A stretch of 64,000 nucleotides of DNA, taken from positions 1,318 through 65,317 of IMG/VR virus record IMGVR_UViG_3300008108_000109; one strand, written 5' to 3'. The DNA is from a virus. Its lineage: Duplodnaviria > Caudoviricetes. A program made the translations under genes and the position numbers. The notes beneath the pieces were generated by a model that was not told the DNA's origin, did no database searches, and saw nothing but the letters and a program-made list of their open reading frames with translations. Positions 35,984 through 59,715 of the stretch are shown here, piece by piece. The stretch's first letter is position 1; every line of letters begins with the position of its first letter.

Positions 35984-36583
35984 ATGCCAAGAGCAATTAG
36001 AACTATCACCGACTTTAAAGCAAAACTTCAAGGCGGTGCAGCAAGACCAAACCTATTTGAAGTTAGTATTCCACGTTTTCCAGCTAGCGTAGCTGGTTGG
36101 GATGATGAAACTTTTAACTTCTTATGTAAAGCAGCCGCTCTACCAGCATCTAACGTTGCTTCAATTGATGTTCCATTTAGAGGAAGAATTCTTAAAGTTG
36201 CTGGTGACAGAACATTTGATGTTTGGACAGTCACCATTATTAATGATGAAGACTTTAAGCTGAGAACATCATTTGAACAGTGGATGAACCAAATCAGCAA
36301 AATGAATAATGCAACTGGTGCAACTAACCCAGCATCATATATGGTTGATGCATATGTTCATCAATTAGGTAGAGGTGAGACTAGGTTCTCAAGAAGTAAC
36401 ACATCTGCAACAACAAACACCCCACTGAGATCTTACAGATTCTACGATATCTTCCCAACAAACGTATCTCAAATTGATCTTTCATACGATACTTCAGATA
36501 CGATTGAAGAGTATACCGTTGATTTCCAGGTTCAATGGTGGCAGGCACAAGGAGATGACCAAACTGGCGCTGCTATTGTATAA
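35984..36583 (+). CDS. gp19: tail tube protein gp19
   Basis: ARPNLFEV, VPFRGR..AGDRTF..WTVT..NDEDF, FPTNVSQIDLSY. Confidence 0.97.
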   Translation: MPRAIRTITDFKAKLQGGAARPNLFEVSIPRFPASVAGWDDETFNFLCKAAALPASNVASIDVPFRGRILKVAGDRTFDVWTVTIINDEDFKLRTSFEQWMNQISKMNNATGATNPASYMVDAYVHQLGRGETRFSRSNTSATTNTPLRSYRFYDIFPTNVSQIDLSYDTSDTIEEYTVDFQVQWWQAQGDDQTGAAIV

Positions 36584-36617: not shown

Positions 36618-38255
36618 ATGGCAAAACTATTTGGATTCTCTATAGAGGATAATAGTAAAAAATCACCAGGAGTGGTCTCCCCCGTACCTCAAAATAATGA
36701 GGACGGGGTTGACTATTATCTAACTAGTGGATTTTTTGGGTCGTATGTAGATATTGAAGGTGTATATAAAACAGAATATGATTTAATTAAAAGATACAGA
36801 GAGATGGCTTTACATCCAGAAGTGGATGGTGCAATTGAAGATATTGTTAATGAAGCAATCGTAAGTGATACTAATGATAGTCCCGTTCAAATAGATTTAG
36901 ATAACTTAAGTGCCAGTGATGGACTTAAGAAAAAGATACGAGAAGAATTTAAATATATTTTAGAAATGATGGACTTTGATAAAAAAAGTCATGAGATTTA
37001 TAGGAATTGGTATGTTGATGGTAGATTATATTATCATAAGGTAATTGATTTAAAAAATCCTCAAGAAGGAATTCAAGAATTGAGATATATTGATGCTCTT
37101 AAAATGCGTCATATTAGACAGGCTGCAAAAAATAAAAAAGATGATGCTAGACTATCTCCATCTGGAGAAAAAAATCCATTAGATTCTGGATTCCCAGATA
37201 TTCAAGAATATTTTCTTTATAACAATTCATCAAACCAACTTGGGGTTATTAGTGGCGGTAATGCAACCCAAGGAATTAAATTTTCAAAAGACTCTATCAC
37301 ATATTGCACTTCTGGTCTTGTTGATAGAAATAAAAATCTAACGTTGTCATATTTACACAAAGCAATTAAATCTCTCAATCAACTTCGTATGATTGAAGAT
37401 AGTCTTGTTATTTACAGATTATCTCGTGCCCCAGAACGTAGAATATTTTATATTGATGTGGGCAATCTTCCAAAGATGAAAGCGGAGCAATACCTCCGTG
37501 ATGTAATGATGAGATATAGAAACAAACTTGTATATGATGCAAATACGGGTGAGATCCGTGATGATAAAAAATACATGAGTATGCTTGAAGATTTTTGGCT
37601 TCCAAGAAGAGAAGGTGGAAGAGGAACTGAAATCTCAACACTTCCTGGTGGACAAAATCTTGGTGAATTATCAGATATTAAATACTTCCAAGAAAAATTA
37701 TATCGATCACTTAACGTCCCTTCGTCAAGAATTGGTGGGCAAGAAGGTTTTAATTTAGGTCGTTCTTCTGAGATTTTAAGAGATGAACTTAAGTTTACAA
37801 AATTTGTTGGTAGACTTAGAAAAAGATTTTCTAATATGTTCAACGACATGTTAAGAACTCAATTACTTTTAAAAAATATTGTTAGTCCAGAAGATTGGGA
37901 ATTAATGGAAGAGCATATTCAATATGATTTCTTATATGATAATCATTTTTCTGAACTTAAAGATGCAGAATTAATGACTGAAAGACTGAATATTGCTGCT
38001 ACTGCAGAACCTTATATTGGTAAGTATTATTCCCAAGATTATGTAAGAAGAAAGATTCTTAGACAAACAGATGAAGAAATTATTGAGCAGGATAAATTAA
38101 TCAAACAAGAAATTAAAAAGGGCATCATACCAGATCCAAATGCACCAATTGATCCAGTAACTGGACAACCAATGCAAACTCCTGCTGGTGGAGATTCTAT
38201 CGACGGTGCTTCTGGTGGAGTTCCAGTAGATCCAGAGGCACCAACAATAACTTAA
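36618..38255 (+). CDS. gp20: portal protein gp20
   Basis: WYVDGR, RAPERRIFYIDVGNLP, EDFWLPRREGGRGTEISTLPGG motifs. Confidence 0.98.
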   Translation: MAKLFGFSIEDNSKKSPGVVSPVPQNNEDGVDYYLTSGFFGSYVDIEGVYKTEYDLIKRYREMALHPEVDGAIEDIVNEAIVSDTNDSPVQIDLDNLSASDGLKKKIREEFKYILEMMDFDKKSHEIYRNWYVDGRLYYHKVIDLKNPQEGIQELRYIDALKMRHIRQAAKNKKDDARLSPSGEKNPLDSGFPDIQEYFLYNNSSNQLGVISGGNATQGIKFSKDSITYCTSGLVDRNKNLTLSYLHKAIKSLNQLRMIEDSLVIYRLSRAPERRIFYIDVGNLPKMKAEQYLRDVMMRYRNKLVYDANTGEIRDDKKYMSMLEDFWLPRREGGRGTEISTLPGGQNLGELSDIKYFQEKLYRSLNVPSSRIGGQEGFNLGRSSEILRDELKFTKFVGRLRKRFSNMFNDMLRTQLLLKNIVSPEDWELMEEHIQYDFLYDNHFSELKDAELMTERLNIAATAEPYIGKYYSQDYVRRKILRQTDEEIIEQDKLIKQEIKKGIIPDPNAPIDPVTGQPMQTPAGGDSIDGASGGVPVDPEAPTIT

Positions 38256-38269
38256 AATATTTTTTTATT

Positions 38270-38932
38270 ATGAATAGATATCATAGATTTTTAGATATTA
38301 AGAATTACATTCCTAATATCGATACTTCAAAGTATCAAACTGAAGGAATGAGATGGCCAGAATTTCATAAACAACTACAATTTAGTGACCTAAACAATGA
38401 TAAAATTTTGCCATGGTTGAATAGTTTAGGATTTACTTCACACTGGATTGAATTTTTTTATACACCACCTCATGATGATGGAGTTATACACTCTGACAAT
38501 GTTTATTATGCCGATTGGGCAAAATTAATATTTCAATTTGGTGCTAAGGGTAGCACCATGAGATGGTGGAGTTCTGATATGGTATTAAGAGTAAGTACTA
38601 GTGCTGAGCAAGTTAGTTCAACAATAATTCCAGAAAGAAGTCAATATACTGTTGGCGACAGAACAAATGATCATTATCATGGACAAGTTTTAGTAAGTAA
38701 AGAAGAATACTGTAAAAAAGAATATGAAGTTGAAATTGGAACTTGTGGATTAGTAAATGTTGGTCCTCTTCATAGTTCACACAATCCAACAGGAGATAAA
38801 AGATTTACAGTAACTATAGCACTAATTGACAAAGATAAAGATTATGAACATAGAATTTTATGGGATGAAGCACTAGAAGCGTTCAAACCTTACATAATTG
38901 ATTCTTCAATAGACCTTTGCGACGCAGTATAA
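38270..38932 (+). CDS. hypothetical protein, cupin/2OG-Fe(II) oxygenase-like fold
   Basis: HxD (IHSD), distal H (PLHSSHN) and R (DKRFTVTI) with spacing of a double-stranded beta-helix facial triad; fold is inference. Confidence 0.55.
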   Translation: MNRYHRFLDIKNYIPNIDTSKYQTEGMRWPEFHKQLQFSDLNNDKILPWLNSLGFTSHWIEFFYTPPHDDGVIHSDNVYYADWAKLIFQFGAKGSTMRWWSSDMVLRVSTSAEQVSSTIIPERSQYTVGDRTNDHYHGQVLVSKEEYCKKEYEVEIGTCGLVNVGPLHSSHNPTGDKRFTVTIALIDKDKDYEHRILWDEALEAFKPYIIDSSIDLCDAV

Positions 38933-40649
38933 AAACTGTGTGGGGGTCGTTTTTGTCAAATTCTTTAAACTCAGTATCTACCAGATATTTACTATCAGAG
39001 CATTCAAGATAAAATGGATAGATTACATTCTCATCAAAAATGAATGCTCTTTGTAGTTTTAATATATCAGAATCTACAGAACAAAATAAATTACTCACAT
39101 CTTCTGCCATTTTAAATATCATATTTTTATTATTGAACATAAAAGCAAAACTTCCTGCATGTAAGGTATGTCCATGCTTGCCAGTATCAAGTATTTTTCC
39201 AGTTTTCATATAATGACTTACTGCCCGCTCAATCTCTCTATAGTGATTGCCAATGATACCATTATCATTTTTAACATATTCAAATAAAGAATCATAAAAT
39301 TTTCTGTATGATATGTTTAGATCATTGAAGAAGTGCTTTGCAATTAATTGAGTATATCCTGCTATATGGAATTGAATTATTAACCATCCATACATATATG
39401 CTTCAATTAGTTCATCATTGCTCATAGTATTTGTTTCTGATATTAGCTCTATAACTTCTTTTATATCATATTCATCATTGCTGAATGACATGTAATCTTC
39501 TGCCTTAATGGTTTTAATACCGAAAATTTCTCTAGAAGTCGCACTATTTAATTCAGTATCTCCAAACATTTGGCAGAACCAAACGTCAATTGATTCATGT
39601 TGCCCACACTCAAGAATTTTTGAAAATCCATCTTTCCAACTATCTAGAGTTTCATCTGGAAGACCAAGGATAAGTTCAGTATATGTTTTTACTCCATACT
39701 TTTTACTTTTCTCAATTTGTTCTGAGATTTTATTAATACTCATATTTTTACGCTTAATTGACTTAAGCGTTGGTTCATTCATGGTTTGAACACTTAATGT
39801 TACACCTCTACTAATGTCTCCAAGGATTTGTGCAATCTCAAAAATAACTTCGGTAGAATTTTTTGAGTATTGGACATTGATTGCTTCCAGTTTTCCTTTA
39901 TCTGCTGCTTTTCTAAACAATTTTGCAATCTCAACATCACGTTCTTTGAACATACCAAAATTTGCATCAGCATTAAAAATGAATCCAACATTATGCTTTG
40001 CTGCCCAATCAATATCTTCTTCAACTCTCGTTATATCAAAGTGCTTTACTTTTTGATATGTCATTCCACCCCAATCACAATAAGTGCATCTGTGGGGACA
40101 TCCGCGATTTGTTTCTATAGTCATTGACCATAAAACATTTGGATTATCATCAATAATTTTGTCGAAGATTCCCATTTGATAGGGACTAGGAAAATCTAAA
40201 GACTCAATTCTTTGTTTTACATATAGTCTTTCAAATGATTCTTTATTTGCAATTTTTCTAAGGAGATCTAAAAATGCCTCTTCACCTTCAGATACTATAA
40301 TACAATCAATAAAATCATACTCCAATAATTTACGAGTTGCTTGAGGACCACCAAATTCAATAATACAATTTGGATATTTTTCTTTAATTAATTTTGCTAC
40401 ATGTAAATTATACTGTTCATTCCATATGTAACAACTAAATGCACAAATTGAAGGGTTATCCAATCTATCAATAAGTTCTTTTGGATTCTCTCTTTTAAAA
40501 ATTAAGTCTTTTAAATTATATTCTTCAATAATATCATTGAACTGAGAACAGTATGCCCACAAGCAACCAACACTATATGGTAACCAATAAGTATCTTCAT
40601 TTCTAACTTCAACCGCATATTGTGGTTGAAACATGTAAAGATTTTTCAT
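38883..40649 (-). CDS. cobalamin-binding radical SAM protein (paralogue 1)
   Basis: ETNRGCPHRCTYCDWG (CxxxCxxC); N-terminal B12-binding-type AFSCYIWN..GGPQ..EGEE; DANFG; ELILGLP. Confidence 0.92.
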   Translation of the reverse strand: MKNLYMFQPQYAVEVRNEDTYWLPYSVGCLWAYCSQFNDIIEEYNLKDLIFKRENPKELIDRLDNPSICAFSCYIWNEQYNLHVAKLIKEKYPNCIIEFGGPQATRKLLEYDFIDCIIVSEGEEAFLDLLRKIANKESFERLYVKQRIESLDFPSPYQMGIFDKIIDDNPNVLWSMTIETNRGCPHRCTYCDWGGMTYQKVKHFDITRVEEDIDWAAKHNVGFIFNADANFGMFKERDVEIAKLFRKAADKGKLEAINVQYSKNSTEVIFEIAQILGDISRGVTLSVQTMNEPTLKSIKRKNMSINKISEQIEKSKKYGVKTYTELILGLPDETLDSWKDGFSKILECGQHESIDVWFCQMFGDTELNSATSREIFGIKTIKAEDYMSFSNDEYDIKEVIELISETNTMSNDELIEAYMYGWLIIQFHIAGYTQLIAKHFFNDLNISYRKFYDSLFEYVKNDNGIIGNHYREIERAVSHYMKTGKILDTGKHGHTLHAGSFAFMFNNKNMIFKMAEDVSNLFCSVDSDILKLQRAFIFDENVIYPFYLECSDSKYLVDTEFKEFDKNDPHTVFILRRKGLLKNQLCKV

Positions 40650-42445
40650 AATTTTACTATGGTGTTTTTATCAAGACCTTTTCTTTTTAATACCCACATA
40701 TCATACCTTTCACTTTCTTCTCGGGCATTGCAAATATTATATTGGGTCTCCTTATCTTCCCAAGTATCCAAATCAAACGGTAAAGATAATTTAATAGGAT
40801 ATTCTATATTTGGATTATATACAAATTCTTTTTGCATTGTAAGAATAGAATCTTCAACTTCCCAACAATTATTAATTAACTCAAATGTGTGTTCTTTATT
40901 ATCCCAAAATAATTTATAGTCTGTTGCCATAGACATTTCTAACGCATGTCCAGTACTGTCTATAACTTTACCAGTAGTCATGTAATTGTATATTTTATCA
41001 TAAAGATTTTTATAGTGATTGCCAAATAATACTGAATCATTTTTTATACAATCAAATAATTTATCATAAAATTTTCTGTAGGAAATTTGTTTTTTATTTC
41101 TATAATATTTTGATACTATTTGAGAGTATCCATTAATATGAAATTGAACAATCATCCAACTGTAAAGATATGCTTCAACTAATTCTTTAGTGTTTAATGT
41201 ATTTGTTGCTTTAATAATCTCTACTGTTTCTTTTATCTCGACACAATCTTTTGTGTTTGTGAAGGAAACATAATCTTCTGCATGAACAGTTTCAATGCCA
41301 TAAACTTCTCTTGATAAAGCACTATTAAGTTCTGTGTTACCAAACACCTGACAAAACCAAACATCAATTGATTCGTGTTGTCCACATTCAAGTAATGTAC
41401 AAAGTCCTTCTTTCCAAGATTCTAAGGTTTCGTCTGGAAGACCAAGAATTAATTCCGAATATGTACGAACCCCCCATTTTTTTGCTAGTTGCATATGTCC
41501 TGCTAAATCTTTTATATGAAGATTCTTTCTTTTAATTGCTTTTAGTGTTGGTTGGTTCATACTCTGAACACTTACGGTAACACCTCTTCTTGCAAATCCT
41601 CCCATTTCTTTTGTAATTTCAAAAACAACTTCATTAGAATTTTTAGAATATTGCAGAACAATATCTTCTATTTTGCTATTGGGATGATCTCCAGCACTTT
41701 TTAACATTTTGGCAATTTCCAAATCTCTCTCAGCAAATATGCCAAAGTTTGCATCTGTCATCATTAAGAATGCAACATTATTATCTCGTGCCCAGTTAAT
41801 ATCGTCTTGAACTCGTTGTAAGTTAAATTTAGATATTTTACTCATTGTTGTTCCACCCCAATCACAATAAGTGCATCTGTGGGGACATCCTCTATTGGAT
41901 TCAATTACTGTTGCCCAAAGAGTATTTGGATTTTCAGAAACTATTTTATCAAATATTCCAGACTGATATGGACTTGGAAATTCTAAATCAGTTATTCTTC
42001 CTCTCTCATAAACTTTATCAAGTTCATCTCCACGTATACACTTTGTCAATAGATCCAAAAAATTACATTCCCCATCACCACCAAGCATAATACAATCAAT
42101 AAAAGAATTATCCTCCAACATTTTTTTAGTTGCTTGAGGACCACCAAATTCAATAATACAATTTGGATATTTTTCTTTAATTAATTTTGCAATCGTTAGA
42201 CAATATTTTTCATTCCAAATATAACAACTAAAAGCACATATGAACGGATCTTCTAATCTTTCTAACAATTTTTCTGGATGTTCTCTTTTAAAAATTATAT
42301 CTTTTAGATCATAAAATGAATTAATGTAGTCATACTGAGAACAGTAACTCCACAAACAAGCAACACTATATGGTAACCAATAATTATCTTCTTTCCTTAC
42401 TTCAACAGAATATTGCGGTTGAAATAGATATATATTATTCTTCAT
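40646..42445 (-). CDS. cobalamin-binding radical SAM protein (paralogue 2)
   Basis: ESNRGCPHRCTYCDWG; same architecture; 4-nt overlap with paralogue 1. Confidence 0.92.
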   Translation of the reverse strand: MKNNIYLFQPQYSVEVRKEDNYWLPYSVACLWSYCSQYDYINSFYDLKDIIFKREHPEKLLERLEDPFICAFSCYIWNEKYCLTIAKLIKEKYPNCIIEFGGPQATKKMLEDNSFIDCIMLGGDGECNFLDLLTKCIRGDELDKVYERGRITDLEFPSPYQSGIFDKIVSENPNTLWATVIESNRGCPHRCTYCDWGGTTMSKISKFNLQRVQDDINWARDNNVAFLMMTDANFGIFAERDLEIAKMLKSAGDHPNSKIEDIVLQYSKNSNEVVFEITKEMGGFARRGVTVSVQSMNQPTLKAIKRKNLHIKDLAGHMQLAKKWGVRTYSELILGLPDETLESWKEGLCTLLECGQHESIDVWFCQVFGNTELNSALSREVYGIETVHAEDYVSFTNTKDCVEIKETVEIIKATNTLNTKELVEAYLYSWMIVQFHINGYSQIVSKYYRNKKQISYRKFYDKLFDCIKNDSVLFGNHYKNLYDKIYNYMTTGKVIDSTGHALEMSMATDYKLFWDNKEHTFELINNCWEVEDSILTMQKEFVYNPNIEYPIKLSLPFDLDTWEDKETQYNICNAREESERYDMWVLKRKGLDKNTIVKL

Positions 42446-43228
42446 AATTTAATCTTTTTTCCAACGCTTTATCGTAAAAATATTTATTGTCCCATCTGCG
42501 GATATTTCTTTCCATAAGTATATCATTATCTTTTCCATATGTAAAAAATTCATCTAAAGTAAAATTATCTTTATCGTGATGCCACCACTCATGATAGGCT
42601 TCATAACATTTTACAAAACTAAGTTTTGGATTCCAGGATAATTCTCCAAAAGGACCTTGATGACTGATTCCCGCAAAATATGGATTAATAGGAATAAGAG
42701 GAATTGAATAACAATTTCCAGATTGATTTATATAGTAATCTGGACCTCCAGAAGTTCCGTCATAATTTTTATCATCATGTATTCCAGAATTTCTATTTAA
42801 ATAAAAAGAATTTGAAATGTTATAATCAAACTTAAATTTACCACCAAAAAAATGGAGATCTAAAAGTTTTTCAACATATTCTCTTTTTAGTAAAGATGCT
42901 CCTAATGAATATTCTGGTTGGGTTGGATGCAAATAAAATGGAATTTTGTAAGGAGTTTCAAATCCAAGTTGAATGCAATCCCAATCATATGGAAGTCTAT
43001 CCATAAATTCTTCCCATTTAAAATGCCACAAAGGCATTAGAGATAAATCATAATCATCTTCCATAAAAATAAAAAATGGATCAGTTGTTGTTAATATCCA
43101 TTCCTCAAAAAATGTAAAAATAAGAGAAGCATACCAATTTATCCACTGGCAAGTATCTTTTGAATATGATCCAGATAATTTATTTAAAAAATCTTTTGGT
43201 GGTAAATAATTGGAAAATTATCTAACAT
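42435..43228 (-). pseudogene. glycosyltransferase family 25-like, 5' frameshift/deletion
   Basis: IFMEDD and LPYDWDCIQLG motifs typical of GT25; frame open 43217-42435 without ATG until 43064; ATG at 43228 (MLDNFPIIY) overlaps the upstream stop but is out of frame. Confidence 0.65.
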
Positions 43229-44799
43229 AGTGCTTCGGTAAGTCTTCTAGATAGTTCAAATTGAGTTTCTTCACTAGTTAATAAAGATCTGTCGTTAATA
43301 TTATAAAGTTCAAAATTATGACCTCTTTTATTTTGTGATAATGTTCCAGTATTCAGATACTGTGTAATTTGTTCTTTTGTTTCAAAATACTCATCTCTTA
43401 CTGGATTGTCAAAAGATAAAAGGACTTCTGTTAATAATTCATAGAATTTTCTATAAGTCATTCCACTATTTTTTGAAATCTCTTTAGTGTGACCATTATA
43501 GTGAAAATATCTAATTACCCAGAAGTACATGTAAGCTTCAATCATTTCTTCCGTTGACATAGTATTTGTTTTATTAACAATTACAGAATATTCAACAAAT
43601 CCATGATCTTCAGTATCACCATCAATAGATTCAATTGGCATATAGTTTAATGCATTGACACTTTCTATTCCATATAAGTTTTTTGATAACTCTGTTGCCA
43701 ATTCACTATTATTAAGAAGTTGACAGAACCAAACTTCCAAAGAATTATGTTGTCCACATTCCATTACAAGCGATATTCCATCTTTCCAAGATTCTAAGGT
43801 TTCTTCTGGTAAACCTAAAATCATTTCAGTATAAGTTTTAACGTTGTATTTTTGACTCAACTCCATATGACTTTTTAAGTTGTTTATATGAAGATTTTTT
43901 CTTTTGATTGCTTTTAATGTTGGTTGGTTTACACTTTGAACACTAATAGTAATTCCTCTTAGAGTATACACATCAAGTAAAGATGCCATTTTAAAAACAA
44001 CTTCTGTAGAATTTTTGGCATATTGCAAGATAATCTCTTTGACTGAACTATTGTCATCAAACTTTCTTTTCATTAATGCAGCAATTTCAAGATCCCTTTC
44101 TCTAAACATTCCAAAGTTTGCATCTGCAAGGAATATTGCATCAACATTATGAGTACGTATCCATTCAAGATCTGCTTCAACTCTGCTCATATCAAAAAAA
44201 CCAATACTACTTAATATAGTTCCACCCCAATCACAAAATGTACATCTATGAGGGCAACCTCTATTTGTTTCTAAAGTAGTTGCCCATTGATAATCTGGAT
44301 GTTTTTTAACTAACATGTCAAAAATTCCAGATTGATATGGACTTGGATAGTCTAAAGACTCTAATCTTTTTTTATCATAAACTTTAGGTATCTCTTGTTT
44401 ATTTAAAATACGAGTTAAAATATCGTAAAAACTTTCTTCTCCTTCAGCAACTATAATAGTATCAATAAAATCATATTGATCTTGCATTTTTACACATGCC
44501 TGTGGTCCACCAAATTCAATAATACAATTTGGGAATTTTTCTTTGATAAGTTTGGCAATACCTAAACAATATTGTTCATTCCAAACGTAAGTACTAAATG
44601 CACATATTGCTGGGTTATCTAATCTTTCTAACAATTCTTTAGGATTCTCTCTCTTAAAAATTACATCCTTTAAAATATAATTTTCTTGTATTTCTGGAAA
44701 TTGGCTACAGTAGCTCCATATGCAAGATACTGCATAAGGTAACCAATATTTTATCTTCCGATTACGCTTATACTGTGGTTGAAACAAGTAGACATTCAT
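43222..44799 (-). CDS. cobalamin-binding radical SAM protein (paralogue 3)
   Basis: ETNRGCPHRCTFCDWG; start MNVYLFQPQY aligns with the other two paralogues (ATG 44799). Confidence 0.92.
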   Translation of the reverse strand: MNVYLFQPQYKRNRKIKYWLPYAVSCIWSYCSQFPEIQENYILKDVIFKRENPKELLERLDNPAICAFSTYVWNEQYCLGIAKLIKEKFPNCIIEFGGPQACVKMQDQYDFIDTIIVAEGEESFYDILTRILNKQEIPKVYDKKRLESLDYPSPYQSGIFDMLVKKHPDYQWATTLETNRGCPHRCTFCDWGGTILSSIGFFDMSRVEADLEWIRTHNVDAIFLADANFGMFRERDLEIAALMKRKFDDNSSVKEIILQYAKNSTEVVFKMASLLDVYTLRGITISVQSVNQPTLKAIKRKNLHINNLKSHMELSQKYNVKTYTEMILGLPEETLESWKDGISLVMECGQHNSLEVWFCQLLNNSELATELSKNLYGIESVNALNYMPIESIDGDTEDHGFVEYSVIVNKTNTMSTEEMIEAYMYFWVIRYFHYNGHTKEISKNSGMTYRKFYELLTEVLLSFDNPVRDEYFETKEQITQYLNTGTLSQNKRGHNFELYNINDRSLLTSEETQFELSRRLTEALC

Positions 44800-44818
44800 A
44801 ACCAAAATCAATTTATTA

Positions 44819-44825
44819 TATTTAT
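44819..44825 (-). promoter_or_regulatory. late promoter ATAAATA for the radical SAM operon
   Basis: Plus-strand tatttat = ATAAATA on minus, 19 nt upstream of ATG 44799. Confidence 0.6.
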
Positions 44826-44827
44826 TC

Positions 44828-44834
44828 TAAATAA
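44828..44834 (+). promoter_or_regulatory. late promoter CTAAATA
   Basis: 25 nt upstream of ATG 44860. Confidence 0.6.
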
Positions 44835-44859
44835 TGATGGTAGTTAATTTATTAGTAAA

Positions 44860-45015
44860 ATGGAAGATCTCTTAGACATGATTGTTAGTGATGAAGCTCC
44901 ACATGCAATCTCTGACAAAATTAAAGAATTGATCTATGCAAAATCTGCAGAAAAGATTGAAGCAATTAGACCAAACGTATCAAACGCATTATTTAATTCA
45001 GAAGAAGAAGAATAA
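44860..45015 (+). CDS. small acidic prohead core protein (gp67-like position)
   Basis: 51 aa MEDLLDMIVSDEAPHAISDKIKELIYAKSAEKIEAIRPNVSNALFNSEEEE; not in ORF track; normally follows gp20. Confidence 0.75.
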   Translation: MEDLLDMIVSDEAPHAISDKIKELIYAKSAEKIEAIRPNVSNALFNSEEEE

Positions 45016-45043: not shown

Positions 45044-45319
45044 ATGTCAACACGAATTAAAATTCTGGGGCAGGAATCTGCTCTTCCAACTACAACGGGA
45101 GCGGCGACTAGCTTTAGTGAGGCAACGGTTGTTCGTTTAGTTAATAGTTCAACCTCAGCAGATTATGTAGTTACAGTTGTTGCAAGTCAAAGTGGGTCTG
45201 TTATTGGATCATTTACTTTAATGAGAGCAACTTCTGAACTGTTAGAAAAGTTACCAACACATTGCGTTTACGCTTCAAACGCATCTGTTTTGGGTGCAAA
45301 AGTAGGATTCACAAACTAA
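45044..45319 (+). CDS. hypothetical protein (head module)
   Basis: 91-aa ORF preceded by ATAAATA (45015-45021) and CTAAATA (45023-45029). Confidence 0.8.
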   Translation: MSTRIKILGQESALPTTTGAATSFSEATVVRLVNSSTSADYVVTVVASQSGSVIGSFTLMRATSELLEKLPTHCVYASNASVLGAKVGFTN

Positions 45320-45325
45320 ACCACA

Positions 45326-45979
45326 ATGAAACTCATCAGAGAAGAAATCGAAAAGGTAGAAGTTCTTACCGAATCGGTAAATGGCAAAAAGAATCTCTTT
45401 ATTCAAGGAGTATTTCTACAAAGCGAGATGGTAAATCGCAATGGTAGAATGTATCCATTCTCTATTATGGAAAGAGAAGTAAAGAGATACACAAATGATT
45501 ATGTTAAAAAAGGACGTGCTTTGGGTGAATTAGGACACCCAGATGGTCCAACTGTTAACCTCGATAGAGTTTCACATAAAATTACCGAACTGAAGCAAGA
45601 CGGTAATAACTTTGTTGGTAAAGCACAAATCTTACACACTCCAATGGGTAAGATTGCAGAAGCATTACTTAAAGATGGAGTAACTCTTGGTGTTTCGTCT
45701 CGTGGTATTGGATCACTAAGAGAAAATATCAAAGGTGGTTATAAGGAAGTTGGTGAAGACTTCATGCTTGCAACTGCAGCAGATATTGTAGCTGATCCAT
45801 CTGCTCCTGATGCTTTTGTTCAAGGTGTTATGGAAGGTAAAGAGTGGGTTTGGGATGGAGGAATTCTTCGTGAAAAACTCGCACAACAGGCAAGAGATAG
45901 GGTTGAAGATTTAGTTAGAAGAAGAGAATTAGAAGAACATAAGTTAAACTTATTCAATGACTTTTTAAATTCTCTTTGA
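45326..45979 (+). CDS. gp21: prohead protease gp21
   Basis: NRNGRMYP, ALGELGHP, LGVSSRGIGS, DIVADPSAPDA catalytic motifs. Confidence 0.97.
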   Translation: MKLIREEIEKVEVLTESVNGKKNLFIQGVFLQSEMVNRNGRMYPFSIMEREVKRYTNDYVKKGRALGELGHPDGPTVNLDRVSHKITELKQDGNNFVGKAQILHTPMGKIAEALLKDGVTLGVSSRGIGSLRENIKGGYKEVGEDFMLATAADIVADPSAPDAFVQGVMEGKEWVWDGGILREKLAQQARDRVEDLVRRRELEEHKLNLFNDFLNSL

Positions 45980-53613: not shown

Positions 53614-55312
53614 CAAACTTCGTTATAAAAATTTCTTAAGCACAGGTAATCAGTTTACAGAAATAAATTTTACAAACTCACCAACTACTCTCGTAATTGG
53701 TAATAATGGATCTGGCAAAAGTACAATGCTAGATGCGTTGACATTTTCTTTATTTGGTAAATCTTTTAGAGGAGTCAATAAACCACAATTAATAAATTCA
53801 ATCAACGAAAAAGATTGTATGGTTGAAATTGAATTCAAAATTGGGTCTATAAATTGGAAAATTAGAAGAGGATTAAAACCATCTGTTTTTGAAATTTATA
53901 AAAATGGAGAGTTATTGAACCAAGATGCTGCAACTAAAGATCAACAGCACTGGTTAGAAAATGTAGTTTTAAAAATGAACTATAAGTCTTTTACTCAGAT
54001 TGTAATTTTGGGTAGTAGTAATTTTGTTCCTTTTATGCAATTGTCTGCAGCAAATAGGAGAGAAGTTATTGAGGATTTATTGGATATTAAAATCTTTTCT
54101 TCAATGAATACTGTATTGAAAGATAGGGTAAAAGTGTGTAGAGATGAGATCCGAAATTTAGAATATAAAAAAGAATCGGTTCAAGATAAATTAAAGATGC
54201 AACAAGATTTTATTGAACAGATTCAAAGTATTGGTAAAAAAGATATAGAATTTAAAACTAGTTCGATAGATAACATCTCACAAGAGAATGATAAATTGTT
54301 GTCAGAATCTTTGGTGCTTGAAGATAATTTAGTTAAAAAACAAAATGAATTATCCAATTTCTCTGGCGCAACAGATAAACTTCGTAAACTTGGTAATTTA
54401 AAAGGTAAGTTATCGCAAAAAATAACAAGTGTTATTGAAGATCATAAGTTCTTTTCTAATAATACGGTATGTCCTACTTGCACACAGTCTATTGAAGAGC
54501 AGTTCAGAATAAATAGAATTGATGACGCTCAAAATAGAGCAAAAGAGTTGCAATCTGGATACCAGGAATTGGAGCAGGCAATTAAAGAGGAGGAAGAGCG
54601 AGAGCGTCATTTTACTTCACTATCTAAAGAGGTAACAGACCTAACACATGAAATTTCTCAAATCAATACTAAGATCTCTGGATACCAAAGACAAATCCGA
54701 GGTCTTGAACAAGAAATTCAAACTATTACCGATCAACTTAAAAACAGAAATACTGAACATGAGAAGTTAAAAGAACTTGAGGATAACTACACAGAACTTT
54801 GCAACGAAGTAGATTCTAAAAAAGATCTTTTAATTAATTATAATTTTGTATCTGATTTACTCAAAGATGGTGGAGTGAAGACCCAAATTATTAAAAAATA
54901 TTTACCAGTAATTAACAGTCAGGTAAATAAGTATTTGCAAATGATGGAGTTTTTTATAAACTTCAAATTAGATGAGGAGTTTACCGAATCTATTGAATCA
55001 CCAATTCATGACGAATTCTCATATACTTCTTTTAGTGAAGGTGAAAGAATGAGAATTGATTTGGCGTTGTTATTTACATGGAGAGAGGTTGCAAAAATTA
55101 AAAATTCTTTAAATTGTAATCTAATTATCTTTGATGAAACTTTTGATTCTTCATTGGATACTTTTGGTACTGATGAATTTATGAAAATAATTAGATATGT
55201 CATTAAAGACGCAAATACTTTTGTAATATCTCATAAGGAAGGAATGAAAGATAAGTTTGCTGAAGTTTTGAAGTTTGAAAAAATTAAAGGATTTAGTAAG
55301 TTGGCATCATGA
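53600..55312 (+). CDS. gp46: recombination ATPase gp46 (Rad50/SbcC-like)
   Basis: GNNGSGKST, CPTC zinc hook, FSEGE signature, IIFDETFDSSLD. Confidence 0.97.
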   Translation: MILFDKLRYKNFLSTGNQFTEINFTNSPTTLVIGNNGSGKSTMLDALTFSLFGKSFRGVNKPQLINSINEKDCMVEIEFKIGSINWKIRRGLKPSVFEIYKNGELLNQDAATKDQQHWLENVVLKMNYKSFTQIVILGSSNFVPFMQLSAANRREVIEDLLDIKIFSSMNTVLKDRVKVCRDEIRNLEYKKESVQDKLKMQQDFIEQIQSIGKKDIEFKTSSIDNISQENDKLLSESLVLEDNLVKKQNELSNFSGATDKLRKLGNLKGKLSQKITSVIEDHKFFSNNTVCPTCTQSIEEQFRINRIDDAQNRAKELQSGYQELEQAIKEEEERERHFTSLSKEVTDLTHEISQINTKISGYQRQIRGLEQEIQTITDQLKNRNTEHEKLKELEDNYTELCNEVDSKKDLLINYNFVSDLLKDGGVKTQIIKKYLPVINSQVNKYLQMMEFFINFKLDEEFTESIESPIHDEFSYTSFSEGERMRIDLALLFTWREVAKIKNSLNCNLIIFDETFDSSLDTFGTDEFMKIIRYVIKDANTFVISHKEGMKDKFAEVLKFEKIKGFSKLAS

Positions 55313-56052
55313 ACGTTTTAATCACTGGACATAGAGGATTTATTGGTAAGAATGTGTTTGCTGATTGGCAAACTACTCACAATCATTTAGTCGTTGGAAT
55401 GGATTTTCCATATGATATTGCTAATTTTGTTGAAGATAATTATGATTTAGTTATTCATCTTGCGGCTTTTGCAAATATCAGGGAGAGTCTAGAAAATCCA
55501 CAAAAGTTTTATGAGAATAATGTAGTAAAATCTAAAAAACTTTTTGACTGGTGTAGAGAAACAAATACTAGACTTTTATATGCTTCTTCAAGTGCAGTAG
55601 AAGAAGATTACTGGGAAAATCCTTATGCCATGACAAAATGGATTAATGAACAAATGGCACCACCAAATTCTGTTGGAATGCGATTTACTACAGTTTATGG
55701 TCCAGACAGTCGTTCAGATATGATGTATAGAATGCTTGAAGACAAAACTGCAACCTATGTTACCAATCATAAAAGAGATTGGATTCATGTTAAAGATGTT
55801 TGTCGAGCAATTCGTTATCTTGCCAGTAGTTCTATTTGTGGTCCAGTTCCAGTTGGGTCTGGTAAATCTGTTTATGTTAAAGATCTTGCAGAAAAAATGG
55901 GGATGGGGCACCTGCCAGTTAGAGAACTGACCCCAGGGGAGAGACAAGACAATGTGGCAGATACTACAATCCTAACTAGTATTGGATGGTTCCCAACCAT
56001 TAACGTTCTGGATACGATCAATGAACACCCCAAATTGGCAACATCACTCTAA
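55309..56052 (+). CDS. NAD-dependent nucleotide-sugar epimerase/dehydratase
   Basis: GHRGFIG Rossmann motif, HLAA, ASSS, YAMTK (YxxxK), RDWIHVKD. Confidence 0.9.
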   Translation: MNVLITGHRGFIGKNVFADWQTTHNHLVVGMDFPYDIANFVEDNYDLVIHLAAFANIRESLENPQKFYENNVVKSKKLFDWCRETNTRLLYASSSAVEEDYWENPYAMTKWINEQMAPPNSVGMRFTTVYGPDSRSDMMYRMLEDKTATYVTNHKRDWIHVKDVCRAIRYLASSSICGPVPVGSGKSVYVKDLAEKMGMGHLPVRELTPGERQDNVADTTILTSIGWFPTINVLDTINEHPKLATSL

Positions 56053-56230
56053 AAAGGAACAAAAACGAAAACTTAAACCGCAAGCACTGAGGCAAGCAAA
56101 AGCAAGACTTGCCCAATTTAAAAAGCGTCACATGGGTCGTCCACAAGGCGACCCTTCTTCGTATAATGACTTCAGTTCAAACAAAAACACCAATGTCTGT
56201 TCGCCACGAAATCAAGTCCCAACTTGCTAA
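56021..56230 (+). CDS. small basic hypothetical protein
   Basis: MNTPNWQHHSKKEQKRKLKPQALRQAKARL; ATG 56021; recalled cyanophage-type ORF after gp46. Confidence 0.65.
   Translation: MNTPNWQHHSKKEQKRKLKPQALRQAKARLAQFKKRHMGRPQGDPSSYNDFSSNKNTNVCSPRNQVPTC
56133..56192 (+). promoter_or_regulatory. early/middle-type promoter with upstream hairpin
   Basis: GGGTCGTC-cacaa-GGCGACCC stem, TATAAT at 56162-67, A/C-rich leader. Confidence 0.55.
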
Positions 56231-58361
56231 ACTTCTTGCCACCGAAGACCTTGTGGTTGAGCACAAGAAGGTGGAGACTGCCTGCTTCAACGTTCATACC
56301 CGTGTGCTAACCCTGCCGATGTGGGAGAAGGCAAGCAACACTGTGTATGACCTTCTGGTGGGGCACGAGGTCGGACACGCTCTCTATACGCCTGATGAGG
56401 ATTGGTTGAAGGAACACAAAATTCCACCACAGTTTGTGAATGTTGTTGAGGATGCTCGCATTGAGAAACTGATGAAGCGTCGTTATGCTGGTCTTGCTAA
56501 GACGTTTTATAACGGTTACAAGGAGCTTGCTGATGATGATTTCTTCCAGGTTGGTGATGACAATCTGGAAACTTATAACCTTGCCGACCGTGCAAATTTG
56601 TGGTTCAAGATTGGTAATTACACGCAAGTGCCGATTGAGCGTGGTGAAGAAATGGATATTATTAATCTGATTGCTGATACGGAAACCTTTGCTGATGTTT
56701 TGATTGCTGCAGAAGCACTCTATAAGTATTGCAAACATAAACAAGAAGAAGAAATTAAAATTTCTTTGGATAATCTTGAGTCTCAACAAAGCGGTGCAAG
56801 TCAACAACCTGCATCTGAATTCAATGGTCAACAGGAAGGTGAGAATGATCAGGAGCAACCTGGTGAGACGGATTCTTATGGTGGGACTTCAGAAACTACA
56901 CAACAACCTACTCAACAACCTACTCAACAAACTAAGGAACAAACTGGGGGAGAAACTAATGAAGAACCAGAAGTAAAAACGATGGAGTCTTTGGAAGAAT
57001 CCTTGAAGGATCTTGTAGATCATTTTGCAACAGAAAGTGTATATCTTGAACTTCCAAAACTTAATCTCAAACAAATTATTGTTCCGAATAGTGAAATTCA
57101 TTCAAAGTGTGAATTGACTTGGAATGAATTTCAAAATAATTGTGGGTATACTCATGACCAACTTTTTGGTGTTGTTGATAAAAAATATTTTGAATTTAAA
57201 AAATCTGCTCAAAAGGAAGTCAACTATCTGGTAAAAGAGTTTGAGTGCCGCAAGGCAGCAGACTCCTATGCCCGTGCTTCGACTGCCCGTACTGGTGTTC
57301 TGGACTGCTCCAAACTTCATACTTACAAATACAACGAGGATCTCTTTAAGAAAGTCACCACTCTTGCTGATGGTAAAAACCATGGTTTGGTGTTTGTTCT
57401 GGATTGGTCTGGTTCAATGGGTGACGTTATGTTGGATACTGTCAAACAACTTTTTAATCTCATTTGGTTCTGCAAAAAAACTGGCATTCCTTTTGAAGTT
57501 TATGCGTTTACTCAAGATTATCCTCTTGTTTCTTATGAAGATGGTAAGGCAAATCTTCGCCAACTTTCTTATCAGAAAAAAGATGGACTAGTTCAAGTTG
57601 GTGAATGGTTTTCCATGATGAATTTGCTTACACATAAAGTTAATAGTAAGACTCTTGAAAATCAAATGAAAAATATCTTTCGGTTGGCAGATTCTTATTG
57701 TCGATACAGTTATTCTTCTTATCCCACTCCTCCTGGACTATCACTTTCTGGAACACCTTTGAATGAAGCAGTTATTTCTCTCCATGAAATTCTTCCAAAA
57801 TTTAAAAAGGACAACAATATCCAAAAAGTTCAATGCGTAATTTTGACTGATGGTGAAGCTTGTGGTATTAAGTATCATCGTGAAGTAAAACGTCATTGGG
57901 AACAAGACCCTTATATTGGAACTGCTGGGTTTGCTGGAAATGCAATTCTCCGCAACAGAAAAACTGGTCACACATATAAGTTCTCCAATGATTATGCTTT
58001 GATTACAGAAGTATTTTTGCAAGATCTTAAAGATAGTTTTCCTGAAATTAATTTGATTGGAATTCGTCTTTTAGAATCTAGAGATGCTGGTAACTTTATC
58101 CGTCGTTATTATGGATGGTATGGTGAAGAGTATGATAAAATTACAAGCATCTGGAAAAAAGAAAGAACTATTAGCATCAAGAAAAGTGCATACAACACAT
58201 ATTTTGGACTCTCTGCAAATGCACTTTCTTTAGAGACTCAATTTGATGTGCAGGAATCTGCAACTAAATCTCAAATTAAATCTGCATTTGTTAAGAGTCT
58301 TAAGTCTAAAAAAATGAATAAAAAAGTTCTCAATCAATTCATGGATCTTATTGTGCAATGA
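56193..58361 (+). CDS. CobT-like metallopeptidase/vWA domain protein
   Basis: HEVGH (HExxH) plus EDARIE; MIDAS DWSGS..GTP..LTDGE; partner of downstream AAA ATPase; ATG 56193. Confidence 0.88.
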   Translation: MSVRHEIKSQLAKLLATEDLVVEHKKVETACFNVHTRVLTLPMWEKASNTVYDLLVGHEVGHALYTPDEDWLKEHKIPPQFVNVVEDARIEKLMKRRYAGLAKTFYNGYKELADDDFFQVGDDNLETYNLADRANLWFKIGNYTQVPIERGEEMDIINLIADTETFADVLIAAEALYKYCKHKQEEEIKISLDNLESQQSGASQQPASEFNGQQEGENDQEQPGETDSYGGTSETTQQPTQQPTQQTKEQTGGETNEEPEVKTMESLEESLKDLVDHFATESVYLELPKLNLKQIIVPNSEIHSKCELTWNEFQNNCGYTHDQLFGVVDKKYFEFKKSAQKEVNYLVKEFECRKAADSYARASTARTGVLDCSKLHTYKYNEDLFKKVTTLADGKNHGLVFVLDWSGSMGDVMLDTVKQLFNLIWFCKKTGIPFEVYAFTQDYPLVSYEDGKANLRQLSYQKKDGLVQVGEWFSMMNLLTHKVNSKTLENQMKNIFRLADSYCRYSYSSYPTPPGLSLSGTPLNEAVISLHEILPKFKKDNNIQKVQCVILTDGEACGIKYHREVKRHWEQDPYIGTAGFAGNAILRNRKTGHTYKFSNDYALITEVFLQDLKDSFPEINLIGIRLLESRDAGNFIRRYYGWYGEEYDKITSIWKKERTISIKKSAYNTYFGLSANALSLETQFDVQESATKSQIKSAFVKSLKSKKMNKKVLNQFMDLIVQ
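56901..56930 (+). repeat. 12-bp tandem repeat CAACAACCTACT x2.5
   Basis: Encodes QQPTQQPTQQ in the acidic linker. Confidence 0.85.
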
Positions 58362-58602: not shown

Positions 58603-59715
58603 ATGCCTCGTAAATCATCTGTGAACGACAAAGCACTTTTTGCAAGCATTCAAGAATTGTATGGTTCTGAAATTACTTCTGGAGATCTCAGGGGGTTTTG
58701 TGCTTCTAAGGGTTTGAATTACCAAACTGTAACTCGCCGCCTTGAACAATTTAAAACTTCTCGTGGTCGTTGGAACTTGGAAGTGACTCAAGAACGTGTT
58801 GAAGAAATTGAGCGTTCTTTTAGTGCTCCTTCTGTTCTTCCTTCTGTCGAGCAAAATCTTATTCCCGATAAAGATGATACCTTCGTCAAGTTTGGTAACT
58901 TTAACGATATTAAAAAAATTATTCAGTCCCATATCTTTTATCCTACGTTCATTACGGGTCTGTCGGGTAACGGTAAAACGTTCAGTGTGGAGCAAGCGTG
59001 TGCTCAACTGGGGCGTGAACTGATTCGTGTAAACATTACGATTGAGACTGATGAAGACGATCTTATTGGTGGATTCCGCCTTGTTGATGGTGCTACTGTG
59101 TGGCATAACGGTCCAGTTATTGAAGCCCTTGAGCGTGGAGCGATCCTGCTCCTTGACGAGATTGACCTTGCCTCCAACAAAATCCTTTGTCTACAATCCG
59201 TGTTAGAAGGTAAAGGTGTTTTTCTTAAAAAAATTGGTCGCTTTGTAAAACCTGCTGATGGGTTTAACGTTGTTGCCACTGCTAATACCAAAGGTAAGGG
59301 TAGTGATGATGGTCGCTTCATCGGCACCAATGTTCTCAATGAAGCATTCCTGGAGCGGTTCCCTGTGACCTTTGAGCAGTCCTATCCTGCTCCTGCAACT
59401 GAGCAGAAGATTCTGGAAGGCATCGCTCTGGATCTTGGTGTGGAAGACCGTGACTTCTGTAAGCGTCTGGTTGACTGGGCAGATATTATTCGTAAGACCT
59501 TTTACGATGGTGGTATTGATGAAATTATCAGCACCCGTCGTCTGGTTCATATCATCCGTGCCTATAGCATCTTCCAAGACAAAGCAAAGGCAATCCAAGT
59601 GTGTGTGAATCGCTTTGATGATGAGACCAAGCAATCGTTCTTGGAACTCTATGATAAAGTGGATGCCGACTTTGTGATGCCTTCTCAAGAAGTTGCTCAG
59701 GACGCTCCGTTCTGA
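58603..59715 (+). CDS. cobS: CobS-like MoxR AAA+ ATPase
   Basis: GLSGNGKT Walker A, LLLDEID Walker B, ATAN, NEAFLERF, ISTRRL. Confidence 0.92.
   Translation: MPRKSSVNDKALFASIQELYGSEITSGDLRGFCASKGLNYQTVTRRLEQFKTSRGRWNLEVTQERVEEIERSFSAPSVLPSVEQNLIPDKDDTFVKFGNFNDIKKIIQSHIFYPTFITGLSGNGKTFSVEQACAQLGRELIRVNITIETDEDDLIGGFRLVDGATVWHNGPVIEALERGAILLLDEIDLASNKILCLQSVLEGKGVFLKKIGRFVKPADGFNVVATANTKGKGSDDGRFIGTNVLNEAFLERFPVTFEQSYPAPATEQKILEGIALDLGVEDRDFCKRLVDWADIIRKTFYDGGIDEIISTRRLVHIIRAYSIFQDKAKAIQVCVNRFDDETKQSFLELYDKVDADFVMPSQEVAQDAPF

Follow-up and report, generated by a model that had tools for sequence, protein, structure and literature searches.

A conserved cassette of predicted cobalamin-type radical SAM genes in the head module of uncultured T4-like cyanomyoviruses

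We investigated a gene island in the head module of an uncultured T4-like virus. The window, meaning the whole stretch of DNA analyzed, comprises 64 kb of a 65.3-kb IMG/VR virus record (IMGVR_UViG_3300008108_000109) with an estimated completeness of 33%. The portal protein encoded there shares 78% identity with its counterpart in Synechococcus phage S-SM2 (Kyanoviridae) and matches 2,593 phage records, mostly of T4-like phages. The island, ~6.6 kb long, separates gp20 from small head open reading frames (ORFs) and gp21; in S-SM2, by comparison, gp20 and gp21 are spaced by two small ORFs only. A first-pass annotation, made from the letters alone, had described this interruption, and both ORF/Pfam mapping and the comparison with S-SM2 bear it out. 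The island holds three genes for radical S-adenosylmethionine (SAM) enzymes (rSAM1, rSAM2, and rSAM3), a glycosyltransferase (GT) gene, and an oxygenase-like gene (ORF220). The features are as follows (aa, amino acids; slots A and B are the two groups of cyanomyovirus copies in the rSAM tree described below):

35984-36583: gp19, 5′ of gp20
36618-38255: gp20 (Portal_T4, E = 1e-193)
38270..38932, plus strand: ORF220, 220 aa; double-stranded beta-helix (DSBH) fold with HxD...H...R; Fe(II)/2-oxoglutarate (2OG)-oxygenase-like
38883..40649, minus strand: rSAM3; Radical_SAM 57.3 bits; TokK homology; slot A, constant cassette member
40646..42445, minus strand: rSAM2, 599 aa; Radical_SAM 41.7 bits; slot-B paralogue
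42435..43228, minus strand: GT25-like GT, broken in the window; placed by PHROG 2835, PF01755 matches of its relatives, and fold
43222..44799, minus strand: rSAM1, 525 aa from ATG 44799 (529 aa from TTG 44811); third paralogue, slot B
44819..44833, both strands: divergent late-promoter-like pair, ATAAATA (minus) at 44825-44819 and CTAAATA (plus) at 44827-44833
44860-45015: 51-aa ORF, 3′ of the island on the gp21 side
45044-45319: 91-aa ORF (phrog_19805)
45326-45979: gp21 (Peptidase_S77), with gp22 and then gp23 beyond

The island has a G+C content of 28-31% vs. 33-49% in its flanks, and the GC skew is reversed within it. Its four minus-strand genes, occupying 38883-44811, had been singled out as the antisense genes of the window; a greedy map of ORFs across the full window (44 plus-strand and five minus-strand ORFs) agrees, four of the five minus-strand ORFs being those of the island. 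The same four genes had been read as translationally overlapping. This stands for rSAM2 and rSAM3, where stop and start share ATGA, but not for the listed 209-aa GT ORF, which has no overlap with rSAM1, the gene being broken. The GT frame and the rSAM2 start overlap by 11 nt, and in intact relatives the GT start codon overlaps the rSAM1 stop (ATGTTAG). ORF220 starts 14 nt past gp20, with which it is probably cotranscribed, and converges with rSAM3 in a 50-nt overlap of 3′ ends (38883-38932). A similar convergent overlap recurs in related loci (e.g., L005, 4681-4724), and late transcripts of the two strands would be mutually antisense across 38883-38932.

All three rSAMs carry NRGCPHRCT(Y/F)CDWGG with the CxxxCxxC motif kept, and all match Pfam Radical_SAM (PF04055) above its cut-off of 29.5 bits (rSAM3: 57.3; rSAM2: 41.7; rSAM1: 48.6). 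The first-pass annotation had credited each with CPHRCT(Y/F)C and an N-terminal cobalamin-binding-type domain. The motif is in all three, but the Pfam B12-binding scores (25.5 for rSAM3, and 19.1 and 16.6 for the others) fall under the cut-off of 32.1 bits, and a putative cobalamin domain is supported by homology to TokK from residue 21 onward instead of by Pfam. Against PDB sequences, rSAM3 matched TokK (7kdx, E = 2e-74, residues 21-473), CysS (E = 4e-38), and, weakly, AprD4. A profile of 12 phage rSAM sequences matched TokK over 22-508 (E = 6e-93) and CysS (E = 1e-51), and within the former match the N-terminal 170 residues of the phage proteins align to the TokK cobalamin domain. The best NCBIfam model for all three is NF033712, the KedN5-family methylcobalamin-dependent radical SAM C-methyltransferase (rSAM3: E = 4e-55; rSAM2: E = 6e-44; rSAM1: E = 6e-48), matched over profile positions 17-404 of 624. 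Furthermore, W76 and W193 of rSAM3, located in the motifs Y-x-W-N and C-D-W-G-G, respectively, are invariant in 12 of 12 phage sequences and align to W76 and W215 of TokK. In the available text of a preprint on TokK, Trp76 is positioned beneath the cobalt and Trp215 next to cobalamin and the substrate, and the two are common only to TokK, ThnK, and CysS among the characterized methylases aligned there; the same text gives the methyl groups added as two by ThnK and three by TokK. The homology to TokK and CysS, KedN5 as best model, and the Trp signature support the earlier assignment of the rSAMs as putative class B (cobalamin-type) radical SAM enzymes, from a clade whose characterized members are C-methylases.

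The three rSAMs are 50-55% identical to one another (rSAM2-rSAM3: 55%; rSAM1-rSAM3: 50%; rSAM1-rSAM2: 51%). We placed them in a quick maximum-likelihood tree (LG+G4, midpoint rooting) of 94 sequences, reduced from 159 at 93% identity, with ORFs under 440 aa and partial copies left out. One clade holds all viral copies (SH-aLRT 99), and it groups with ten Patescibacteria sequences at a support of 91, under the star threshold. The cyanomyovirus copies fall into slot A (rSAM3 orthologues, SH-aLRT 100) and slot B (SH-aLRT 99). Slot-A sequences are 71-97% identical to rSAM3 in 62 cyanomyovirus loci, and slot B comprises rSAM2, rSAM1, and several diverged types, at 43-98% identity to rSAM2. Within slot B, rSAM1 is fast-evolving and sits on a long branch (end branch length 0.76); it ends at about residue 523 of rSAM2, with ~75 C-terminal residues absent. 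Its 90% cluster has 11 members, nine of them of 525 aa, on >20 contigs.

A scan of IMG/VR with rSAM3 returned 67 loci, and 62 of these are flanked by gp19, gp20, or gp21 in the same order. Arrangements could be counted in the 33 loci spanning g21 to g20 (given from the g21 side to the g20 side):

GT-rSAM-rSAM-ORF220: 18/33 loci
GT-rSAM-rSAM: 5/33 loci
rSAM-rSAM-ORF220: 5/33 loci
GT-rSAM-ORF220: 3/33 loci
rSAM-rSAM: 1/33 loci
rSAM-GT-rSAM-rSAM-ORF220 (L012; the form of the window): 1/33 loci

The three paralogues noted at first are present in the window but exceptional: two are the norm, and three are a rare elaboration of a widespread two-paralogue cassette. Among the 67 loci, rSAM1 occurs in L005, L007, and L012 only, the closest kin of the window. 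ORF220 is present in 47 of the 56 loci that hold gp20 and an rSAM. The island genes are under purifying selection: dN/dS (NG86, window vs. L007) falls between 0.05 and 0.16 in ORF220, each of the three rSAMs, and what is left of the GT (rSAM2: 0.085; rSAM1: 0.084 over 138 codons) and 0.11 for gp20, at a dS of 0.8-1.2, which is near saturation. In another T4-like contig (L051, 1918-9750), a gene of the rSAM3 type (71% identity) lies between RecA-like (UvsX) and DnaB-like (gp41) genes with a cytidylyltransferase-like gene near it, so the rSAM3-type gene has moved between genome modules.

Of the 80 best-ranking gp20 relatives in IMG/VR, 52 extend 1.5 kb or more past gp20, and the island is present in 13 of these (seven of seven at ≥85% gp20 identity, six of 19 at 80-85%, and none of 26 below 80%). 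The 39 relatives free of it comprise 28 with gp21 within 0.9 kb, 10 with other inserts, and one that is uninformative. These other inserts measure 2.1-4.4 kb (L145, L147, L148, L154, L155, L164, L176, L195, L200, and L201). In the seven examined, all ORFs are on the plus strand, typically one of 105-230 aa and then one of 406-528 aa, and nine ORFs sampled from five of the contigs had no Pfam family above threshold. With such alternative inserts, the g20/g21 site is a hot spot for cargo, one lineage being marked by the island. No close homologue was found among 50,697 phage genome records: the island DNA had no match by megablast, ORF220 had none either, rSAM3 found two gut-phage fragments only (22-24% identity), and relatives of the GT reached at most 36% identity. 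Scoring 8,000 candidates from the protein database yielded at least 2,802 homologues of rSAM3 (E ≤ 0.001). The island is best explained as a conserved accessory cassette of an uncultured, Kyanoviridae-like lineage of T4-like cyanomyoviruses, inserted between g20 and the small head genes plus g21.

The GT gene of the window had been called GT25-like, which homology and fold bear out, but its inactivation had been overlooked. Relative to L012 and L005, to which it is 98% identical, it has a deletion of 112 bp, not a multiple of three, which shifts the frame. The junction lies near 43202-43204, with a 2-nt microhomology. From the ATG at 43228 a 14-codon stub runs to 43184; the remainder continues in another frame (42435-43217), where the first ATG, at 43064, yields 209 aa from which the nucleotide-binding N-terminal part is absent. 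In the conserved upstream frame this remnant has no start codon. The window protein is without residues 10-46. Elsewhere, complete copies of 290-312 aa are intact in 34 of 34 loci, and three further copies are cut by contig ends. In a collection of 15 billion proteins the broken form occurs on the window's own contig only, its cluster mates having 301 or 279 aa except for one 165-aa member on an 820-bp contig, and neither IMG/VR nor the JGI metagenome contigs contain an exact match to the 34-nt junction. Since the junction is private to one contig, the deletion is a rare variant or an assembly error.

The remnant matched PHROG 2835, named "glucosyltransferase", at E = 9e-16 over positions 102-189 of a 280-position profile. 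PF01755 did not match the remnant or three intact orthologues (including that of L012) at E up to 1, but its cut-off of 24 bits was passed by eight of eight relatives at 35-50% identity (24.7-30.2 bits); the deletion takes out part of the N-terminal region that bears this match. The AlphaFold2 model of the intact L012 protein (predicted local distance difference test, pLDDT, 92) has a GT-A fold, and its best Foldseek matches are Mimivirus R655, human COLGALT1, and a bacterial GT25 galactosyltransferase (9crz, 9evj/9evk, 8xc8), with TM scores of only 0.36-0.46. A DxD-type motif, M93-E94-D95-D96, is invariant or nearly so in 41 sequences, and a GT profile gave marginal matches only against PDB sequences (E = 0.03-0.2). 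Homology and fold together support a divergent GT25-like GT-A enzyme.

ORF220 matched no Pfam, NCBIfam, or PHROG family. Its close family comprises 84 clusters, all unnamed, and a profile search of 1.84 billion representatives returned 805 clusters (50% identity) at E up to 0.001; none of 38 distant members sampled from these had an oxygenase Pfam match. In the protein atlas, ORF220 met unnamed viral clusters only, and the nearest named clusters scored 0.89, the level of a lead. Five residues (H74, D76, H168, N172, and R178) are invariant in 42 sequences, and H74, D76, H168, and R178 also in the 38 distant members; R178 may be the basic residue that binds the 2OG carboxylate. The AlphaFold model (pLDDT 89.7) is a double-stranded beta-helix whose best Foldseek matches are JmjC/cupin oxygenases (E ~1e-4), and VIA-align gave Z scores of 6.5-8.8 (proline 3-hydroxylase: 8.8; NO66: 8.0; AspH: 7.6). 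Nearly all fold matches are Fe(II)/2OG oxygenases or cupins. From the modeled fold and the invariant residues, ORF220 looks like an Fe(II)/2OG oxygenase, in keeping with the first reading of an oxygenase-like gene, although it stands on the plus strand directly after gp20. The family lacks a curated model and is a candidate new oxygenase family. A gene like ORF220 (25% identity) lies 5 kb from an rSAM homologue in two unrelated viral contigs, L063 and L064.

A late promoter had also been claimed for the island. The canonical T4 late promoter TATAAATA is absent from it and occurs once in the window vs. ~10 times expected, but a late-promoter-like pair of ATAAATA and CTAAATA heads the operon. 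In the window, ATAAATA occurs at 18 sites vs. ~39 expected and CTAAATA at eight vs. ~21, the heptamer expectations coming from dinucleotide-preserving shuffles; this depletion of heptamers and octamer is consistent with selection against stray late promoters. Twelve of the 26 [AC]TAAATA sites are intergenic, and 12 of these 12 lie 8-39 nt upstream of a gene start, including those of gp18, gp20, gp22, and gp3. The minus-strand ATAAATA (44825-44819) is 20 nt upstream of the rSAM1 ATG, and the plus-strand CTAAATA (44827-44833) is 27 nt upstream of the 51-aa ORF at 44860. All 39 loci in which both the gp21 start and an island gene are present keep this back-to-back pair. The motif evidence suggests that the island operon is read from a late-type promoter. 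A second minus-strand ATAAATA lies inside the 3′ end of the GT gene (42481-42487), 36 nt before rSAM2 begins, and might serve as an internal promoter for GT-independent expression of rSAM2 and rSAM3. Sigma-70-type sites showed no enrichment (60 vs. 45.6 expected, standard deviation 7.2), and terminator-like sites were at chance level.

Outside cyanomyoviruses, homologues of the rSAMs keep company with sugar genes. Scanning GTDB gave 55 cellular loci at ≤36% identity, from Patescibacteria, Alphaproteobacteria, Pelagibacteraceae single-cell genomes, and others; none of the 55 is cyanobacterial. This and the low identity contradict the membership in a host housekeeping family that the first-pass annotation had raised. 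Within 7 kb of the 55 homologues we found genes for epimerase/dehydratase in 29 loci, short-chain dehydrogenase/reductase (SDR) in 17, DegT in 12, aldo-keto reductase in 12, PhyH in 11, and transketolase in 10; in the sister clade from the candidate phyla radiation, epimerase/dehydratase was found in seven of 10 loci. These neighborhoods bear the marks of nucleotide-sugar tailoring clusters. In five loci (L091, L093, L094, L111, and L114), from Pelagibacteraceae single-cell genomes and one Flavobacteriaceae metagenome-assembled genome, an SDR/B12-rSAM/aldo-keto reductase core is conserved, with epimerase/dehydratase or transketolase and E1-like genes near it in all five and a PhyH dioxygenase in four (not L114); it looks like an uncharacterized branched-sugar cluster in abundant marine bacteria. 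In viruses, a contig of another kind (L063/L064, 5448-17575; 130 kb) has a B12-rSAM homologue at 49% identity, accompanied by three further radical SAM genes, a DegT fragment, an epimerase/dehydratase, an amidinotransferase-like gene, and the distant ORF220 homologue mentioned above; this cluster is a larger phage-borne sugar pathway. On another viral contig (L065), a homologue of ~50% identity has an epimerase/dehydratase two genes away.

The window itself encodes a nucleotide-sugar epimerase/dehydratase at 55309-56052, after gp46, as in phage Bellamy (76% identity). We considered it as a pathway partner and dropped it, since the same position holds it in isolates that lack the island. Next to it come a 750-aa ORF without Pfam family (56109-58361) and a CobS-like AAA_5/CbbQ_C ATPase (58603-59715). 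The CobS-like gene is listed as a core cyanophage gene in the available text of PMC9301287.

Among known systems, the phage rSAMs come closest to TokK, ThnK, and CysS, to whose N-terminal cobalamin domain, radical SAM core, and part of the C-terminal domain they align. These are sequential C-methylases, TokK and ThnK building the carbapenem C6 alkyl group and CysS extending an alkoxy group of cystobactamid. The phage proteins differ in being virus-encoded, in having two to three paralogues, in lacking a beta-lactam or nonribosomal peptide synthetase (NRPS) context, and in the last ~100 residues, which do not align. The island GT shares the GT-A fold and the E-D-D (DxD-type) motif with the GT25 family (PF01755, the bacterial beta-1,4-galactosyltransferases of lipooligosaccharide (LOS), COLGALT1, and R655), but it has an extra helical C-terminal part of ~100 residues and no direct PF01755 match. 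Phage GTs that glycosylate virions and adjoin structural genes have a precedent in mycobacteriophages, and a GT that glycosylates the capsid of chlorovirus PBCV-1 is a weaker fold match of the island GT (2p6w, E = 2e-3). In these systems, too, a GT gene lies inside the structural module; to our knowledge, none of them has B12-dependent radical SAM methylases. Large cultured cyanomyoviruses (P-SSM2, S-SCSM1, and S-SCSM2R) likewise carry lipopolysaccharide (LPS)/glycan clusters with GT25-type GTs and sugar-nucleotide enzymes, but elsewhere in the genome than g20/g21. S-SCSM2R has the isolate GT nearest to that of the island (36% identity), and the available text of PMC12801897 describes a radical SAM "maturase", not of the B12 type, beside its GT25 genes. 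In pelagimyophages, radical SAM cassettes are placed in the host-recognition cluster (PMC7029224, available text). The full-text literature that we searched, with subscription journals and supplements outside its scope, contained no description of the island, nor of a B12-dependent radical SAM methylase from any phage; viral sequences of this kind may already appear in the sequence-similarity network of the TokK supplement.

We have hypothesized that the island is a late sugar or glycan tailoring module, a reading to which we give about an even chance (~0.5). Late in infection, the rSAMs would methylate unactivated carbons of a sugar or sugar substituent one or more times, drawing on SAM, a reduced [4Fe-4S] cluster, and host cobalamin or pseudocobalamin; the oxygenase would hydroxylate the same product or its acceptor, and the GT would attach the sugar to an acceptor, for which a virion protein is the most plausible candidate. 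The GT is linked to the rSAMs because it is present in 27 of the 33 islands spanning g21 to g20 and, in intact copies, overlaps the rSAM1 stop and the rSAM2 start. Late timing and a link to the virion are suggested by the promoter-like pair in 39 of 39 loci, the same motif at gp18, gp20, gp22, and gp3, and the constant position in the head module. A sugar is favored as substrate because both viral (L063/L064 and L065) and cellular homologues adjoin sugar genes. The pathway first proposed, for a glycan of the virion or the host surface or for DNA, is partly supported; its underlying observation is partly confirmed, and a glycan of the virion or the host surface is a putative target.

Several results weigh against this tailoring module. 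With the GT deletion, the pathway would be incomplete in the window genome (or its assembly). Six of the 33 complete islands have no GT and six have no ORF220, so the rSAMs do not strictly need either in cis and the rSAM pair is the core. The scores against the KedN5 model (187, 150, and 163 bits for rSAM3, rSAM2, and rSAM1) are far under the curated cut-off of 700 and the C-terminal third is unmatched, which makes the rSAMs relatives of that family rather than members. Counting along the alignment, TokK Arg280, which binds the carbapenam C3 carboxylate, has a non-Arg residue opposite it in the phage profile consensus, so that the substrate should differ from that of TokK; the characterized relatives (TokK, ThnK, CysS, and KedN5) act on antibiotic intermediates and not on sugars. 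The fold matches of ORF220 are moderate (TM 0.3-0.4; Z ≤ 8.8) and extend over many substrate classes. The epimerase/dehydratase at 55309-56052, being present in island-free isolates, lends no specific support to an island pathway, and substrate, product, and transcript are things that we infer.

Other functions would account for part of these data. The foremost, although unlikely, is direct post-translational modification of a virion protein, in which ORF220 would hydroxylate a side chain, the GT would glycosylate the hydroxylated residue, and the B12-rSAMs would C-methylate side chains. Each step has precedents (JmjC, AspH, and prolyl hydroxylases; COLGALT1 on collagen hydroxylysine; Mmp10, the glutamine C-methyltransferase of methyl-coenzyme M reductase, and PoyC). 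In its favor, a late motif precedes the cassette within the head module, protein hydroxylases (NO66, MINA53, YcfD, AspH, and a viral collagen prolyl hydroxylase) make up many of the best ORF220 fold matches, and the best GT fold matches include the human collagen hydroxylysine galactosyltransferase and Mimivirus R655. However, ORF220 matches small-molecule oxygenases equally well, the rSAMs are far closer to TokK and CysS (a cut-off of E ≤ 0.01 brought up no solved peptide-modifying B12-rSAM), the 65-kb record showed no collagen-like repeat, and the cellular homologues lie in sugar clusters. These last clusters, of the surface-glycan type, would suit remodeling of the LPS or envelope glycan of the host, e.g., to block superinfection or alter recognition, a function that has been proposed for LPS gene clusters in large cyanomyoviruses; the Pfam name of GT25 as an LPS/LOS family would suit it as well. 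Cell-surface modification is proposed for GT-rich cyanophages in the available text of PMC12801897. We find this function doubtful, next in rank to protein modification, as a late-type promoter and a place in the head module are ill-suited to an envelope change that needs time before lysis, and the cassette has no transport or flippase gene.

Synthesis of a small diffusible metabolite, antibiotic-like or signaling, would agree with the closest characterized relatives (TokK, ThnK, CysS, and KedN5), all natural-product enzymes that by sequential methylation make ethyl, isopropyl, or larger alkyl groups. It appears improbable, because neither the cassette nor the surrounding ORFs examined contain an NRPS, a polyketide synthase, a carrier protein, or a beta-lactam synthetase, and TokK Arg280 is not conserved. 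DNA hypermodification, to a glycosylated or methylated base, was among the first proposals and found no support. The PHROG family of the GT remnant is named "glucosyltransferase", and some phage GT families glucosylate DNA (PMC12801897, available text); against this stand the late-type motif and head-module position, the sugar-nucleotide clusters around the homologues, and a cassette without hydroxymethylase, kinase, or DNA-binding domain, and the phage DNA-modifying radical SAM enzyme described in the available text of PMC8989533 is of a different, non-B12 type. We regard hypermodification as very improbable. That the island is an assembly chimera or decaying, nonfunctional DNA is hardly credible, even though the GT deletion is private to this contig and the record is a 33%-complete fragment: the recurrence of its gene order and site in 62 of 67 loci, drawn from many separate assemblies, contradicts the chimera envisaged at first, the dN/dS of 0.05-0.16 and the intactness of all other complete GT copies argue against decay, and only the 112-bp deletion could still be an artifact.

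The number of slot-B paralogues per island is one, two, or none, with at least four diverged types. More speculatively, and with long odds against it, the rSAMs might carry out sequential C-methylations that extend a branched alkyl group (ethyl, isopropyl, or larger) on a capsid-displayed glycan or side chain, with the constant slot A starting the chain and the interchangeable, fast-diversifying slot-B paralogues setting its final size, so that virions would have a variable chemical serotype dependent on the host supply of pseudocobalamin. If this is true, B12-dependent radical chemistry would for the first time be linked to a virion.

Cobalamin-dependent radical SAM methylases perform some of the hardest methylations in biology and, as far as we know, have so far come from antibiotic, cofactor, lipid, and methanogen pathways. 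A conserved, late-type set in abundant ocean viruses would extend B12-radical methylation to virions or to the glycans of infected cells, and phage fitness would be tied to the supply of B12-type cofactor in picocyanobacteria. Islands with one, two, and three paralogues form a natural series on which control of the number of methylations could be studied. With 62 IMG/VR loci at the site and no isolate in the phage collection, the island marks a common lineage that culture collections have missed.

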